IMG/VR virus record: IMGVR_UViG_3300032286_000710
Coordinates: 102,605-166,604 of that record
Reading direction: 5' to 3' (one strand)
DNA length: 64,000 nt
Source: a virus
The position numbers and the translations under genes were made by a program. A model generated the notes under the pieces. That model was not told the origin of the DNA. It made no database searches and worked only from the letters and a program-made list of their open reading frames with translations. Positions 619 to 51,046 of this stretch are shown piece after piece (positions within the stretch are counted from its first letter, which is position 1; each line of letters opens with the position of its first letter).

Positions 619-1590
619 TTATACTGAAGTTTCAATTGTCTCAAGCGTCATCCTCACAATACCAGCATAGAAATTGCTATTTACTAGCTTCATATTTTGA
701 ACGCTAGAATTTTTTAATCTCAAACTCCCACGATAGTACTTATCTATTAAATCTGGGTATCTTAAAGCTCCAGAAACCGGAAATCCGTGATAATCTAGAG
801 GAAATGCGCCACTTCTGGCTATGTTATTACTATTAAACATGTATATAGTCTTCTCGTTTTGCAAAGAAATAATATCTACTAATTTATTTCTAGTATATTC
901 ATCCTCTGCCAAACAGTGGAAAAGTAAATCTGTTTCAACAAATTGACCACCCCCAAGCTGATATCCCCTCATTGTTCGACGGGGAACTACTTCTATAGCT
1001 ATTACTGGTAATTGAATCCTGGCCTCTGTTGGGAGTTCATATTTACCTTTATTTAATACATTAAAGTCAGTATTAAGATCTAATGATGAGTATTGAACTT
1101 CAGCCAGCCAAGGAAGGCTATTAGCATAAACTATATTGATGTACCTATAACTATACTCGGCTTTTACGATGCTGGATGTAGGAATAGGATTATTAAAGAT
1201 AATTCTACCATTAAAATAGTCTACTTTATGGGCATATGTGCCATTAGTGTTGGATGGGTAAAATGTATTGTTTACATAAACTCCAGAAATACCGGGAATT
1301 GAGTTATTATTTCCAACAATTGGAGAGGGAGTATAAGAAACCCCGCTTTGCCATACCCAGTTTTGCCTAAAACTTTCCCAAGCCTTACCGCTAGGAAAGG
1401 AGGAATTGGAGGACATTCTAAGTTTACTATAATCTACACCTTCTGGAGAAAGTTCGCCAAGGGATACATTCATGTAGTTCCCTTTTTCTAAAAGCGACCA
1501 CTCCAAAAATTCAACTATATTATCTTGCAGTTCATTATTTAACGTACTGTCAAATACACTGTCAAATCCTTTAAGATTTAGATAGTTCAT
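619..1590 (-). CDS. Putative tail terminator/tail completion protein
   Basis: 323 aa between neck genes and tail tube. The C-terminal LPVIAIE...GYQLGGG...DLLFHCLAEDEYTRNKLVDII segment resembles tail terminators. Confidence 0.45.
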   Translation of the reverse strand: MNYLNLKGFDSVFDSTLNNELQDNIVEFLEWSLLEKGNYMNVSLGELSPEGVDYSKLRMSSNSSFPSGKAWESFRQNWVWQSGVSYTPSPIVGNNNSIPGISGVYVNNTFYPSNTNGTYAHKVDYFNGRIIFNNPIPTSSIVKAEYSYRYINIVYANSLPWLAEVQYSSLDLNTDFNVLNKGKYELPTEARIQLPVIAIEVVPRRTMRGYQLGGGQFVETDLLFHCLAEDEYTRNKLVDIISLQNEKTIYMFNSNNIARSGAFPLDYHGFPVSGALRYPDLIDKYYRGSLRLKNSSVQNMKLVNSNFYAGIVRMTLETIETSV

Positions 1591-2228
1591 TATGCACCTA
1601 GTATATTTTCAAAGATTTTAGCTATTTGTTTTTCTTGTTCACTGCCGGTTAAAGCGCGAGTTATAAAATTATTTTGATCTGTTCCAGAAAATTGTGGGGG
1701 TACTCTAAAAGAACCTCCCTCTTTCATGTTACCTAATCTAGATCGTCCCAAGCCAGTTTGTGGGTTGTATTCATATCCAACTACTATAATTTCATCTCCC
1801 CTATTTAATAACCAATCTAGCCAGTGTAAATCTCCATCTTTATAAATAGAATGACCTTGGGGGAGATTTAATAAATTAGCAAAATTGTCTGGTTGAATAT
1901 TAACTTCAATACCGCCACCCTTTAGTTTATTATTATATGGAACTACCGATATACTTGTTGAGCTTACTACCGAAGATATAATAGCATTAATTATAGAAGC
2001 TGCACTAATAGTTATGCCGAACTGACCAATCAAGGATGAAGTGCCTCCAGAAGATAAAGATTCCATTTCTGGTTGGCTTGATATCCAAGACGGTAATAAC
2101 AAATTTATTTCTTGAAGTATTTTAACTTTGCTAGATTTCATAGAAGCATTGAATTGAGTAGCTATAGCAGATAGTATATTATTTTCTATCTGATCAACTG
2201 ACTCAAGTAATTTGAGCGTAATGCTCAT
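1590..2228 (-). CDS. Putative neck/tail completion protein
   Basis: 212 aa; called from synteny within the head-tail joining cluster. Confidence 0.4.
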   Translation of the reverse strand: MSITLKLLESVDQIENNILSAIATQFNASMKSSKVKILQEINLLLPSWISSQPEMESLSSGGTSSLIGQFGITISAASIINAIISSVVSSTSISVVPYNNKLKGGGIEVNIQPDNFANLLNLPQGHSIYKDGDLHWLDWLLNRGDEIIVVGYEYNPQTGLGRSRLGNMKEGGSFRVPPQFSGTDQNNFITRALTGSEQEKQIAKIFENILGA

Positions 2229-3227: not shown

Positions 3228-5023
3228 TCATATGTCCCCATTATACCATATTCGCCTTCGTATCTATTCAATAATACCAGCGGATTACCATCTGAACCTT
3301 TGTCTACGGGGAATAATTTAACATATCCAGACGGACTGTATGTTATTTTTGATATAAGGGTTTTATTCATAGTAACACCATAGCTATTGCCAATTGCGTC
3401 GGAATGCATTAAACCACTCGCTAAACTACCATAATAATAATTGCCCAATATGTCAGTACACTCTGCGTAATCGCCAGTTTCATCTTCTGGAACTATTCCG
3501 CATATATATGTACTCTCTTCAACACCATTTAAAAAACACCTGACTACTAATGACAAATCAATATTAGAATCAATCAAACCATTAACTACTTCTACTGGAT
3601 TAATTGGAATTTTATTCCAATATGAGTATGATGCTAGCCAACTTAAATTGGCTGATGATGATTTAGATGCTACTTGTCTAATTACTTTATTTTCTGAATT
3701 ATAAATCAATCTTTGCTTTGGTGTATCAGTAAATCTATGTGAACTATTTATTAGTGATGTTTTAACGGTTCCTAAGTATCTTGCTAAAGGATATCCATAT
3801 CCACCAGAGGGAGAACAATAAACACCCTTAATTTTAGAAATTGGATAAATTCTATATGAATTACCAGAATTTGGAACATATGACCCACCATCTTCGGTAT
3901 ATATATCTGTTTCATGCCCGAACCATCTTTTAGTATAAAATTTTAGTTTGCTATTTTCAATATAACCAAATACATCATGTATATTATCTGACTGTGGGGT
4001 AAAGGGTGACTGTTCCAAACTTGATGAGTTAGTAACTAAAACTCCGCTTCCAGAAACGCCATCAGAAAAATCAATAGTAGACCAAATAATTTTTCCAGAC
4101 TGTATAGATGGCAATGAGATGTAACTTCCATTATGTGGAGTAAAATATAACTGTGTACCAGATCCATCAAAAACGGACTGTGTGCTACTTAAAGACAGTC
4201 TTCCGTCATTTATACTTGCATTACCTATTTCTAAACTTTTTAAGTATACGCTAGATAAATCTGGTATATCTTCTACTGTTAATGGTCTAAAAACTGGATA
4301 GTTGGGACTACATGGTGGTGAACAGCCACTGGGAGGACCGGCAAAAAATGTTCCAGCATTTTGTTTTTTAAATAGTATATTTTGATTAACAACGCCACTT
4401 AGCTGTATTACAGAAGCAGAGTTAACATCAGTCTGGTTCATCTCAAAATGAGTTAATTGAGTTCCACCAACGTAGGATGATAATCCGTTATTACCGGACG
4501 GAAAAAATACTCCACTGTTACCAACAACAAAACCAGAAGCTTTAATATTAGAAGATGAGCTTGAACCACCAACATCTATTGATGCTGTAGGATTATTTTT
4601 ATTAATACCAATACGCCCGTTACCAGAATCTACTGTGAACTTATTACTGTATGATAAAGCATTAGAAGAATTCCAAAATGCTAAACCGCTACTTTGTGGA
4701 ACTGGAAACAGACCAGATGTACTAAACACAGCATTATTGGCTGGATAAGTAACATATATCTCTTTTAAGCCCTCGGTAAAGCTTACTAAGTTGTTACTAT
4801 TAGTACTCTTGATAGGAAATCTTTTGATCTGATTATTGGAAGATAAGTATAATCCAGAGCCGATTTCGTAGTTAGTGCCGTCAGTAACAGCATAGAACAA
4901 TTCGCCGCTGTTTGAATATACAGATGAGAATGAAGAAAATCCCTGTACAACTCCACTAAGAGAGAAGTTGCCAGTACCAATAGTATAGGTTCTTTCTTTT
5001 ATTCTATCGTATATATTTATCAT
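3221..5023 (-). CDS. Tail fibre-like virion protein
   Basis: 600 aa, Gly/Ser-rich. N-terminal DRIKERTYTIGTGNFSLSG domain and a GRIGINKNNPTASIDV fibre repeat. Confidence 0.6.
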   Translation of the reverse strand: MINIYDRIKERTYTIGTGNFSLSGVVQGFSSFSSVYSNSGELFYAVTDGTNYEIGSGLYLSSNNQIKRFPIKSTNSNNLVSFTEGLKEIYVTYPANNAVFSTSGLFPVPQSSGLAFWNSSNALSYSNKFTVDSGNGRIGINKNNPTASIDVGGSSSSSNIKASGFVVGNSGVFFPSGNNGLSSYVGGTQLTHFEMNQTDVNSASVIQLSGVVNQNILFKKQNAGTFFAGPPSGCSPPCSPNYPVFRPLTVEDIPDLSSVYLKSLEIGNASINDGRLSLSSTQSVFDGSGTQLYFTPHNGSYISLPSIQSGKIIWSTIDFSDGVSGSGVLVTNSSSLEQSPFTPQSDNIHDVFGYIENSKLKFYTKRWFGHETDIYTEDGGSYVPNSGNSYRIYPISKIKGVYCSPSGGYGYPLARYLGTVKTSLINSSHRFTDTPKQRLIYNSENKVIRQVASKSSSANLSWLASYSYWNKIPINPVEVVNGLIDSNIDLSLVVRCFLNGVEESTYICGIVPEDETGDYAECTDILGNYYYGSLASGLMHSDAIGNSYGVTMNKTLISKITYSPSGYVKLFPVDKGSDGNPLVLLNRYEGEYGIMGTYEC

Positions 5024-5961
5024 GTTACGGTTACTGTAACGGGTGGACTACCAGAACCACCCGGTTCTGTACCGAATATTACCAAATCATTTAAGTCTGC
5101 ATCTACGTATTGACCGCCATCGTCTTGTACGTAGAAAGTTAATTTTCTTAATGAAGTGGCATCATTTCCAGATCTAAATGATAAACCAACTGTATTAGTT
5201 TGAAAATCAGTGCCATTTGTGGATGTGCCTCTAGCATTACTAGATCCAATAGCAGCATAATTATTGTCAGCTAAAATGCCAGAGTGGAATGTGATAGTAA
5301 ACTTACCAACTCCATCTTTATTTATACCAGAAACACCAAACGAATCTCTAACGACGGGAAGGCTATTAACTCCACTAGCATCAAAATTGATCCAAGCTTT
5401 TGCAACTCCACGGGCAGAACTCATACGAGATTTATCTTTTAAGAAAGTAAGTGATGTTCCACTACCAACATTAATAATTTCACCGGTAGAACTTACATAA
5501 CTAAACTGTAAGCCTCTATAACCATTATTGTTTGTTACATCAGCAGAGCCGCTGGAATTAATCCAGTTATTTCTCATACCTAAACTTCCTGTCATAGCTC
5601 TGCTACCATTAGATGTTAGGTATTGAGTATGTGGATCACCAGCACTTAAATCAGCTAAATTATTGTGAGATAAACCTTGTGGGCCGGGATAAGCAACATA
5701 CTGCATCCCACCACCATTAATGAAGTTAATACCAGAACCAACATATAGTGTACCACCATTATTTCCATCTTTTTGAAGTCTTACGTCATTTACAAATGGT
5801 GTTTCAGAATTGAAATTACCACTAGCCACAATTTGGTTTATAGAATCAACAGTGTCCACAATGCTGTTTCTAACATCGGCGGCTGAAATCATACCAGCAT
5901 TGTTATCTGGTATAACGCTACCAACATATGAAATTAAACCACTTTTTGATCTAACAGTCAT
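5020..5961 (-). CDS. Tail fibre-like virion protein
   Basis: Contains the DPHTQYL motif and an AKAWINFD...GVGKFTITF C-terminal fibre domain. Confidence 0.6.
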   Translation of the reverse strand: MTVRSKSGLISYVGSVIPDNNAGMISAADVRNSIVDTVDSINQIVASGNFNSETPFVNDVRLQKDGNNGGTLYVGSGINFINGGGMQYVAYPGPQGLSHNNLADLSAGDPHTQYLTSNGSRAMTGSLGMRNNWINSSGSADVTNNNGYRGLQFSYVSSTGEIINVGSGTSLTFLKDKSRMSSARGVAKAWINFDASGVNSLPVVRDSFGVSGINKDGVGKFTITFHSGILADNNYAAIGSSNARGTSTNGTDFQTNTVGLSFRSGNDATSLRKLTFYVQDDGGQYVDADLNDLVIFGTEPGGSGSPPVTVTVT

Positions 5962-5973
5962 CTTAATCCTCCA

Positions 5974-6492
5974 TTAATATCTGAAATAGCCGCCTCTAGA
6001 ATCATAATCACCGTGGGTTCTAACAACGTAGTCACTAGCTGGACTATAGGGGCCAAGAATGGCATGTCCAACTATGCTACCACCAGCACGGTAATCTAGT
6101 AGTAGTTTAGCATATTTATCAGAGAGGTCTTTGTATAAAACTGATAGGGTAGAGGCTACTCCCCTTAAGTCTATAGCAGAGGGTCCATCTTTGATAGAGA
6201 TTGCATTTGAAGCTTCGGTCTTTAGTTCACTACCAATTATAATACAAGCAGTTTTTAATGCAGTTAAATTAATAAAAGCATTATCTTTATCCCCAGCAGT
6301 TGGGTCTGGCGAAAGATCACCGTTGGCAATATCTATAAAATAAGAATTAGTAAAATCCGTTTCTATAGTTAGCATTTGTGCGCTAACGAGAATAGATGTT
6401 TCTATCCTATCATCAGAATATTTGTAATTAGATGGTTCTAGGTCATTGATTAAATGCCTGACCATTAACGGTATCTGGCTTCTCCAAGACAT
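5974..6492 (-). CDS. Putative head-tail adaptor
   Basis: 172 aa helical protein (VRHLINDL...YSDDRI...ISIKDG) with a GTGTATA motif at 6532-6538. Confidence 0.5.
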   Translation of the reverse strand: MSWRSQIPLMVRHLINDLEPSNYKYSDDRIETSILVSAQMLTIETDFTNSYFIDIANGDLSPDPTAGDKDNAFINLTALKTACIIIGSELKTEASNAISIKDGPSAIDLRGVASTLSVLYKDLSDKYAKLLLDYRAGGSIVGHAILGPYSPASDYVVRTHGDYDSRGGYFRY

Positions 6493-50297: not shown

Positions 50298-50708
50298 ATG
50301 ATTAAGGTACGTTATCATCTTCAGAAGGGTCAGTATTACAAGCACTGGCAGTTCAAAGATACTGAGACTAAGAGAGTGTGGTATGTTCATCCAGAAGAGC
50401 AAATCATTGAACTCCATAACTGTGTTCTCCACAATAACCGTAATGTGGCAAACAAGATTTATACGGGGGCTAATAAGGATGTTTGTGCATGGATAAAGTT
50501 CAAGGATGGTTTTAGGTATGATGAATCATTCATCCCCTCATATTCTACTCACCTAAAGTATGACCCTAGGAAACTCCCTTACTGGCATACTTGGTCAGGA
50601 AGAAACATTGACGGTTTTGCATTTGACATTCTACACCTTACATCCAAGGGTGTGTTCTACAATGAATGTAGGCAAAATATTTTGAATCCTCTAAAGATTG
50701 CCCCTTGA
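50298..50708 (+). CDS. Hypothetical protein
   Basis: 136 aa; KVRYHLQKGQYYKHWQ. Confidence 0.65.
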   Translation: MIKVRYHLQKGQYYKHWQFKDTETKRVWYVHPEEQIIELHNCVLHNNRNVANKIYTGANKDVCAWIKFKDGFRYDESFIPSYSTHLKYDPRKLPYWHTWSGRNIDGFAFDILHLTSKGVFYNECRQNILNPLKIAP

Positions 50709-50895
50709 CAAGCCGATAACATAGTGTATAATGAGAGAGTAAGACATGGAGAATGTAGCGTAATGGTAGCGTGTGGGAAGTTCCGAACTGCGACAATAGT
50801 GCAGAGTAGGCAAACAAATGCCCATGAAGTGGTTCGATTCCACTCTTCTCCCCTTGACAAGTCGATAACATAGTGTAGAATGATGGAGTAAGACA
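50701..50895 (+). promoter_or_regulatory. Tandem duplicated sigma70 promoters (about 46-bp direct repeat)
   Basis: TTGACA-agccgataacatagtg-TATAAT (50705) and TTGACA-agtcgataacatagtg-TAGAAT (50854). Confidence 0.8.
50748..50852 (+). ncRNA. tRNA-like RNA with an expanded anticodon loop of about 43 nt
   Basis: Acceptor GGAGAA(T)G/CTTCTCC, D-arm GCGT-AATGGTA-GCGT, T-arm AGTGG-TTCGATT-CCACT. Confidence 0.65.
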
Positions 50896-50905
50896 AAACA
50901 AATAT

Positions 50906-51039
50906 GCGTGCGTCTAGCGACTAGATTGGGATAACCTATACGATAAACCTACGGCTGTTATGCAGCGTGGGGTTGCCTAACGGGGTTATACGTTAGGATA
51001 GTATACCAATCTACGGGGGTGCGATTCCTCTGCCACGCT
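50906..51039 (+). ncRNA. tRNA/tmRNA-like structured RNA with a pseudoknot
   Basis: GCGTG/CACGC closing stem, T-like arm GGGGG-TGCGATT-CCTCT, helix TAGATTGG/CCAATCTA and two inner hairpins. Confidence 0.6.
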
Positions 51040-51046
51040 CTAATAC

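Follow-up and report, generated by a model that had tools for sequence, protein, structure and literature searches.

A probable non-decoding transfer RNA mimic carries a conserved arm in place of the anticodon loop in uncultured phages

RESULTS

The gene and its promoters

We analysed a window of 64,000 nucleotides (nt), the last 64 kilobases (kb) of the 166.6-kb IMG/VR phage record IMGVR_UViG_3300032286_000710, which has terminal repeats and was judged complete, and describe here a gene in the shape of a transfer RNA (tRNA) that probably does not decode and that we refer to as the mimic (105 nt, window positions 50748-50852, + strand). It lies 3' of a perfect sigma-70-type promoter, TTGACA-N16-TATAAT at 50705-50732 (+), which matches the consensus at 12/12 positions, ends 15 nt 5' of the mimic and is one of nine perfect sigma-70 sites in the window, where 0.22 would be expected. 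Transcription would start at about 50739-50740, leaving a leader of 8-9 nt. A duplicate promoter, TTGACA-N16-TAGAAT at 50854-50881 (+), with 11/12 consensus matches, starts 2 nt 3' of the mimic and serves the next non-coding RNA; the 46-nt promoter repeat is 91% identical to positions 50700-50745. An earlier interpretation made from the letters alone, here called the sequence-only reading, was therefore right that the gene has a dedicated promoter duplicated before the next RNA. No terminator was found between the two promoters. Since relatives that lack the mimic show one promoter fused to the next RNA, the duplication marks a cassette junction, the second copy standing at the 3' edge of the cassette.

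Two further observations concern these promoters. Judged by the relatives L003, L004, L005 and L007 (~4404-4450), the mimic together with one promoter copy behaves like an insertable cassette of ~150 base pairs (bp). The word GAGUAAGACA stands 3' of both promoters (50733-50747 and 50882-50896) and, in L017, 5' of a mimic for which a promoter cannot be recognised; a conserved 5' leader and a signal for processing are both conceivable.

The tRNA body

The acceptor stem has seven pairs, formed between GGAGAAUG (50748-50755, +, with U50754 bulged) and CUUCUCC at 50845-50851; the 3' strand with its discriminator C50852 spans 50845-50852 (+), and no CCA is encoded, the next letters being CUU. The D arm (GCGU/AAUGGUA/GCGU, 50758-50772, +) carries the elbow nucleotides G18 and G19 in the Rfam tRNA alignment, the T arm (AGUGG/UUCGAUU/CCACU) occupies 50828-50844 (+), and U8-A9, G26 and a 3-nt variable region are present as well. 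The Rfam tRNA model (RF00005), whose gathering score is 29, gave the mimic 29.9 bits (E = 0.00049 when 901 nt were searched) and the family member L108 38.8 bits. The acceptor, D arm and T arm of the sequence-only reading are all in place. The former anticodon stem, here called P1, is formed by UGGG (50774-50777, +) and CCCA (50821-50824, +) and encloses exactly 43 nt, which the Rfam alignment treats as a local insertion within the anticodon stem; as had been read from the sequence, these nucleotides hold a CUGC/GCAG hairpin (50788-50804). Equally, there is no 7-nt anticodon loop of the U33 type, and default ARAGORN, which called eight ordinary tRNAs in the window, did not call the mimic.

Using exact-pattern scans on different halves of the RNA followed by a T-arm filter, we recovered at least 64 distinct sequences of the same family from uncultured phage contigs of 5-365 kb (IMG/VR and JGI metagenomes), a count that is a lower bound; a 7-nt anticodon loop is absent from all 64 members. 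Whole-member MAFFT alignments were not structure-accurate, and the helices were instead parsed by script and the arm aligned alone. Compensatory changes in the relatives maintain all helices of the mimic, most positions showing several pair types and some as many as five. Among 19 members, the outermost five acceptor pairs were canonical in 19/19 and the sixth in 17/19, with 4-5 pair types each; the P1 pairs and the five T-arm pairs (5/5) were canonical in 19/19, the outer T-arm pair being AU, GU, GC, CG or UA. The D-loop GG was invariant in these members and the T loop was retained too, and therefore the elbow should form. Acceptor length varied across the 64 members, with a perfect 8-bp stem in 25 (L019, L021, L027 and L031 have one), 9 bp in six and 7 bp in eight, while the other 25, including the window clade, had a bulge or mismatch. 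Judged from these comparisons, the tRNA shape of the mimic is not due to chance; the energy of its fold is unexceptional (z = -1.06).

The arm replacing the anticodon loop

Across the family, an arm of about 38-43 nt replaces tRNA positions 31-39. P1 closes it and is followed by an A-rich internal loop with strands of unequal length, a short helix (G(U)CC/GGC), a second internal loop in which GA(G)A faces (G)AGUA and, as a cap, a hairpin of variable sequence, P3. In the window the invariant 5' strand (50778-50787, +) is made of AA, G(UU)CC and GAA, and AAGU(U)CCGA is unchanged in 40-53 members; P3 reads CUGC-GACAAUAGU-GCAG (50788-50804, +); and the invariant 3' strand (50805-50820, +) comprises an S-turn-like AGUA, GGC, which pairs with GUUCC, and the A-rich AAACAAAUG, with AGUAGGCA and CAAA..G invariant.

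Covariation of the insert, a check proposed in the sequence-only reading, was evaluated in an alignment of 40 arm sequences. The covariation score was 0.363, compared with 0.105 in shuffles, and was reached by 0/500 of them, while 92% of the cells assigned to pairs were paired, compared with 77% in the shuffled and at most 40% in the slid controls. The inner two pairs of P1 were canonical in 40/40 sequences, with three and four pair types, and the P1 pairs always changed together (GG/CC, CC/GG, AG/CU, CGC/GCG, CAAG/CUUG, GU/AC, CUC/GAG and GCGC/GCGC). P3 also varied in its stem, 15 different versions occurring in the 40 members, all canonical, and its loops were mostly GNRA, with GACA in the close relatives. 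The window copy alone has a 5-nt insertion, AUAGU, in this loop (GACA to GACAAUAGU), which is able to lengthen the hairpin by two pairs; the P3 loop is a harmless site for it. The core of the arm, by comparison, remained constant while the tRNA body drifted with compensatory change: 23 columns are invariant, and the core can be written as AAGU(U)CCGA(G)A-C ... G-(G)AGUAGGCA-N(1-3)-CAA(A)-N-G. The A-rich 3' strand, A-NN-CAAA-U-G, joins the inner helix to P1 and is conserved, the single N of the 3' strand taking all four bases and the U of its AUG being A, G or C in 6/40 sequences. In the 5' strand there is a difference in length, U or UU, with UU in the window clade, which fits a bulge.

Covariation cannot fix the inner pairing, because the bases between P1 and P3 never change, and two registers can be drawn. 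In the first, a G-C pair is followed by a bulged U (UU in the window clade), two C-G pairs and then a 3x4 or 4x5 internal loop; in the second, which RNAalifold prefers, G-C, U-G and C-G are contiguous (GUC/GGC) and the next C is unpaired. The first register accommodates the U/UU indel, and with it C-GAA-C faces G-AGUA-G in the window clade, while in most other members GAGA faces GAGUA. An AGUA opposite a GAA, with Watson-Crick pairs on both sides, is the signature of the sarcin-ricin or loop E S-turn, and the internal loop of the arm may well form such a turn, like helix V-loop E of 5S ribosomal RNA (rRNA).

Other uses of these letters were considered and rejected. A fold of three small hairpins (GG-AAGU-CC, a middle hairpin and GGC...GCC) is near-isoenergetic in single sequences, and members with closing stems such as CC/GG or CGC/GCG cannot form it. 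The mimicry of a start codon and ribosome-binding site (GGAG...AUG) fails on the U of AUG, variable in 6/40 sequences, and on the window clade, which has no GGAG. For a miniature transfer-messenger RNA (tmRNA), the reading frame GCA-AAC-AAA-UGC-CCA-UGA would have to be closed throughout, but it is open in part of the clades, its stop is not conserved, and ARAGORN made no tmRNA call on the window. As an antisense element the arm found no target in the window, where the reverse complement of its 5' strand occurs at chance level only.

Distribution of the family

Five carrier genomes, put together from fetched pieces (166, 323, 131, 197 and 365 kb; guanine plus cytosine (GC) content 36-42%), have exactly one copy each. 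The local composition of the contigs ranges from AT-rich to GC-rich, some members lying in clearly GC-rich sequence (L088, L100 and L101, for example). Two strict patterns that recover most of the viral members gave 0 matches in 185,579 bacterial and archaeal species genomes (one genome per species), and BLAST against 50,697 GenBank phage records, with the locus and with a diverged member, gave no match except for tRNA words of 21 nt. The arm corresponds to no family in Rfam 15, and a full-text search of the literature by topic and by arm sequence words found no description of the family; in the main text of a 2023 catalogue of 10,006 candidate RNAs from IMG/VR, tRNA-like candidates come up solely in cases that ARAGORN calls as tRNAs. 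As far as these sequence searches reach, the mimic is a member of a widespread, virus-only RNA family for which no description was found in a database or paper.

The mimic usually stands inside a tRNA gene cluster or next to one: in about half of the members a bona fide tRNA gene is no more than 300 nt away, and the mimic often follows it after only 1-5 nt. The arrangement of the locus varies: in L016 the mimic and the next RNA stand under one shared promoter, and in L002 and L018 the mimic is followed by a tRNA.

Decoding and the 3' end

Of the mimics from loci in which CCA is encoded by at least 80% of the true tRNA genes, only 2/25 encode it themselves; in three of these loci the true tRNA genes with an encoded CCA are 25/25 (L089), 27/27 (L108) and 13/13 (L075). 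The contrast in CCA between the window phage, whose own tRNA genes are considered below, and the larger carriers (L089, L108, L075 and L040), in which almost all tRNA genes encode it, suggests hosts with different tRNA 3'-end pathways. The missing CCA, together with the combination of an 8-bp acceptor and a 5-bp T stem (8/5 geometry), suggests that the mimic may stay out of aminoacylation and translation.

Proposed role and the search for a partner

From these data we consider it very probable that the gene encodes a functional, non-decoding tRNA mimic. As an overall explanation we favour, with some reserve, a stable mimic whose tRNA body would scaffold the conserved arm, which in turn would dock a conserved host factor. 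It would be transcribed early in the window phage from its own strong sigma-70 promoter and released by the tRNA-processing enzymes of the host, ribonuclease P (RNase P) cutting at G50748 and trimming at the 3' side ending after C50852. The tRNA fold would then protect it and give it tRNA-like stability, and it would be neither charged nor used in translation. The invariant arm would be recognised by its sequence and dock a conserved component of the host, which might be a protein or an RNA, and the mimic could act as a sponge, or as a tether joining the docked component to something that recognises tRNA bodies. The docking of a host factor by the arm is the more tentative part, which we put forward as plausible while thinking it somewhat likelier to fail than to hold. 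The sequence-only reading had suggested, among other options, a non-decoding decoy: that the RNA is non-decoding is supported by the lack of an anticodon loop and by CCA in only 2/25, while its being a decoy is no more than one way in which the mimic might act.

An all-against-all comparison of open reading frames (ORFs) found no protein family common to all five carrier genomes, no protein family recurs beside the mimic in the fetched flanks of nine clades, and Pfam and PHROG scans of the neighbouring genes gave nothing related to RNA. The ORF at 50298-50708 was rejected as a partner: three genomes share it, but it lies 23-40 kb from the mimic in G1 and G2 and is kept where the mimic is absent. 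Since no phage protein co-occurs with the mimic, a host partner is favoured over a phage one, and since the arm stays the same in phages of 130-365 kb and on contigs of AT-rich to GC-rich local composition, a conserved host component is most likely addressed.

Several points weigh against the proposed scaffold and docking arm. The invariant nucleotides of the inner helix fit either of the two registers given above, and the S-turn assignment depends on which of them holds. The Rfam models for 5S rRNA, RNase P RNA, Y RNA (RF00019) and YrlA (RF02553) gave no match when 116 nt were searched, even with E allowed to reach 10. The eight true tRNA genes of the window phage (45939-62512) are also without CCA, so that the argument from CCA rests on other members. 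Finally, L003, L004, L005 and L007, the relatives closest by the ORF upstream of the mimic, do not have the mimic, and in them a single promoter runs into the next RNA; the mimic is dispensable for at least some phages.

One alternative that names the host factor is a permuted Y RNA, a tRNA body with a Ro60/Rsr site in its anticodon arm that would tether host Ro60 to a tRNA-binding enzyme, a role that has been proposed for YrlA. The Ro60-contact motif is GGUCCGA in vertebrates and GNCGAAN0-1G or 'CGAA' in bacteria (PMC4201824, PMC12135203). The GUCCGA of the arm 5' strand supplies six of the seven bases of the vertebrate motif, and the CCGAA of the window clade is close to the bacterial one (PMC4201824, PMC12135203). 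The match is partial throughout the family, most members reading GUCCGA(G) and the window clade UUCCGAAC. The register preferred by RNAalifold (G-C, U-G, C-G and an unpaired C) also resembles the bulged-C helix of Y RNAs, but the extra U of the window clade breaks a Y-like register. Moreover, six-frame searches found no Ro60 TROVE domain in eight carrier phage records, three of them complete, no conserved gene stands beside the mimic, and the YrlA and Y_RNA models are silent at E up to 10. The 6-mer match is also one among several motif resemblances that were tried. The family spans AT-rich to GC-rich contigs, whereas bacterial Ro60 is sporadic. We regard a permuted Y RNA as unlikely.

No likelier, in our judgement, is an arm that copies a universal host RNA element and hijacks its binder, the best candidate being 5S helix V-loop E-helix IV, by which the mimic would titrate bL25 or enter the central protuberance of the ribosome, and the other the core of RNase P RNA. 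We searched the Escherichia coli rRNAs, RNase P RNA, the tmRNA region and 4.5S RNA (~5.5 kb) for arm words, and CCGA...AGUAGG occurred once, at 5S positions 70-106, where helix V supplies the CC/GG and loop E the GA.../...GAGUA. In RNase P RNA, AAGUCCGG (position 66, in the CR-I/P4 strand) and GGGUAGGC (position 291) differ from the two arm strands by one mismatch each, and the constancy of the arm on contigs that differ widely in local composition would fit a universal target. In 5.5 kb, however, each query should find about two 8-mers with one mismatch, which places the RNase P matches near chance; the Rfam 5S and RNase P models are silent; and the arm has only half of loop E and no P4 partner strand. 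That the arm is a miniature 5S helix V-loop E on a tRNA body, capturing bL25/Ctc or occupying the 5S site of the large subunit, is a more specific version and a very doubtful one. It would find an echo in mitochondrial ribosomes, which replaced 5S rRNA with tRNA, and, if true, translation would be reprogrammed or protected during infection.

The arm might also be a ligand-binding aptamer or a small ribozyme on a tRNA scaffold. Such RNAs typically have internal loops that do not change, stems that covary freely and a capping loop of no importance, as the arm does. However, the riboswitch and ribozyme families of Rfam give no match, neither a metabolic gene nor an expression platform accompanies the mimic, and a cleavage site is not indicated, and we consider this quite improbable. 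The sequence-only reading had offered a tRNA scaffold displaying an aptamer, of which the scaffold stands, the body covarying around a structured module with an invariant core, for which an aptamer would be one conceivable identity.

Splicing and decay

A protein-spliced intron, which the sequence-only reading had also proposed, would make the mimic a real tRNA, Gly-UCC in the window and Arg-CCG in most relatives, with a small intron after position 38. As had been suggested, we ran ARAGORN with its intron option, which calls a tRNA-Gly(UCC) with a 32-nt intron at 50748-50853, and the arm is loosely like a pre-tRNA anticodon-intron helix, having a stem, a 3'-strand bulge, a short helix with the 'anticodon' bases, an internal loop and a hairpin. 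The would-be anticodon is not consistent, however: L022 and L043 (GUCC) are otherwise near-identical to L012 and L036 (GUUCC), and the one-U indel between them changes it from CCG to UCC. The 'intron' is the most conserved part of the gene and the 'exons' are variable, the opposite of known tRNA introns, and the would-be loop positions 32 and 38 are both purines. The geometry of the arm (a 7-9 nt bulge, a 3-bp helix and a 3x4 or 4x5 internal loop) is not that of a bulge-helix-bulge (3-nt/4-bp/3-nt). The search for an RtcB ligase or splicing endonuclease, another check that had been proposed, was also negative, tRNA-intron endonuclease, RtcB and Rnl2-type ligase (PF01974, PF01139 and PF09414) being absent from six-frame translations of the three carrier genomes G000 (complete), G001 and G002, while positive controls were detected. 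With CCA missing where neighbouring tRNAs encode it, we consider splicing by proteins highly improbable. Group I introns are self-splicing and about 200 nt or more in length; the insert was rightly judged too short for one, with its 43 nt and no RF00028 match at the mimic, while the same model detects a real intron in L021. A decayed tRNA pseudogene with a random insertion, for which one could cite the silence of default ARAGORN and the fold energy (z = -1.06), is refuted by the comparative data, at least 64 members retaining the helices by compensation around an invariant insert core, by a gene with its own perfect promoter, and by relatives that either lack the gene (L003, L004, L005 and L007) or carry the same arm, rather than having a normal tRNA or an unconserved insert there as decay had been expected to leave.

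Neighbouring features

The next RNA (window 50906-51040) is retained in relatives without the mimic. It has a 76-nt tRNA-like core at 50964-51039, with a 7-bp acceptor-like stem and a T-like arm (GGGGG-UGCGAUU-CCUCU); the Rfam model of selenocysteine tRNA (tRNA-Sec) gives it 16.7 bits, far under threshold, and ARAGORN at a relaxed threshold calls a tRNA-Pro(AGG) at 50965-51040. The ORF 5' of the mimic (50298-50708, +, 136 amino acids) belongs to no solid family, with a weak Pfam match to Phage_L5_gp82 (E = 0.008), and its homologues in unrelated large phages adjoin tRNA-Lys and tRNA-Glu genes (~89.9-90.3 kb in G2).

In other carriers, the intron of L021 is an Rfam group I match of 55.4 bits, above threshold, at 1512-1700 (-), a few hundred bases from the mimic and within a tRNA cluster. 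In the 365-kb phage, L032 has a weak match to the tmRNA model (16.5 bits, threshold 47) at 4177-4307 (+), ~80 nt 3' of the mimic, reminiscent of the 'mini-tmRNA-like' RNA found next to the mimic in the window. The trailers 3-6 nt past the acceptor share A(A)GUU (UCAGUU, UAAAGUU, AAAGUU and UAAGUU; for example in L040, L076, L081, L108 and L155), a possible 3' processing signal. The phage of L026 encodes at 5377-6330 (-) a protein with an N-terminal methylation motif and DUF1559 (SBP_bac_10), a family much expanded in Planctomycetes and so a possible hint to the host of that phage.

DISCUSSION

Phages carry tRNAs, and YrlA, tmRNA and viral tRNA-like ends are known reuses of the tRNA shape. The mimic belongs among the tRNA mimics, or natural tRNA-scaffolded RNAs. 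Its nearest parallels each share some of its features and differ in others. Like the mimic, YrlA (RF02553; PMC4201824) is non-decoding, occurs in phages and joins a tRNA-like acceptor/T/D module to a second, conserved helix, which binds protein as the arm of the mimic might, and the GUCCGA/CCGAA word of the arm resembles the Ro60 site. The two are wired differently, however, the ends of the mimic lying in the acceptor stem and its arm being closed by a hairpin, whereas the ends of YrlA lie in the Ro-binding stem and its acceptor is closed by a loop. There is also no Ro60 gene in the eight carrier records, the YrlA model is silent on the mimic, and the described YrlA and phage Y-RNA motifs (PMC4201824, PMC12135203) include nothing comparable to AGUAGGCA..CAAAUG, the 3' strand of the arm.

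With canonical tRNAs the mimic shares the acceptor, D and T arms, the elbow nucleotides and the placement in tRNA clusters, and it passes the gathering score by 0.9 bit; it differs in having no anticodon loop, no long variable arm and usually no CCA in loci that encode CCA. Many members have the 8-bp acceptor and 5-bp T stem of bacterial tRNA-Sec, from which this 8/5, 13-layer acceptor/T geometry is otherwise known, but they are without the UCA anticodon, the long variable arm and the 6-bp D stem, and RF01852 is silent. The flanking CC...GG of the arm and its GA... opposite (G)AGUA, closed by a hairpin, recall 5S helix V-loop E-helix IV, in the pattern of E. coli 5S 70-106, although the mimic has only the proximal half of loop E, no helix II/III arm and no Rfam 5S score. 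The engineered tRNA scaffold of Ponchon and Dardel, dating from 2007, reportedly carries a foreign RNA on the anticodon stem and is said to be processed and stabilised like a tRNA. The design principle is the same, in one case as a laboratory tool and in the other as a natural, conserved and virus-confined RNA.

The mimic offers a natural case in which a tRNA body would serve as a scaffold for expression and stability, with textbook covariation around an invariant arm of ~25 nt. For those who annotate phage genomes, the family provides a model for 'odd tRNAs' that are now missed or miscalled, and for RNA engineering the arm is a compact natural module. Its partner, once identified, could point to a hitherto undescribed means by which phages commandeer or shield the RNA or translation machinery of their hosts.

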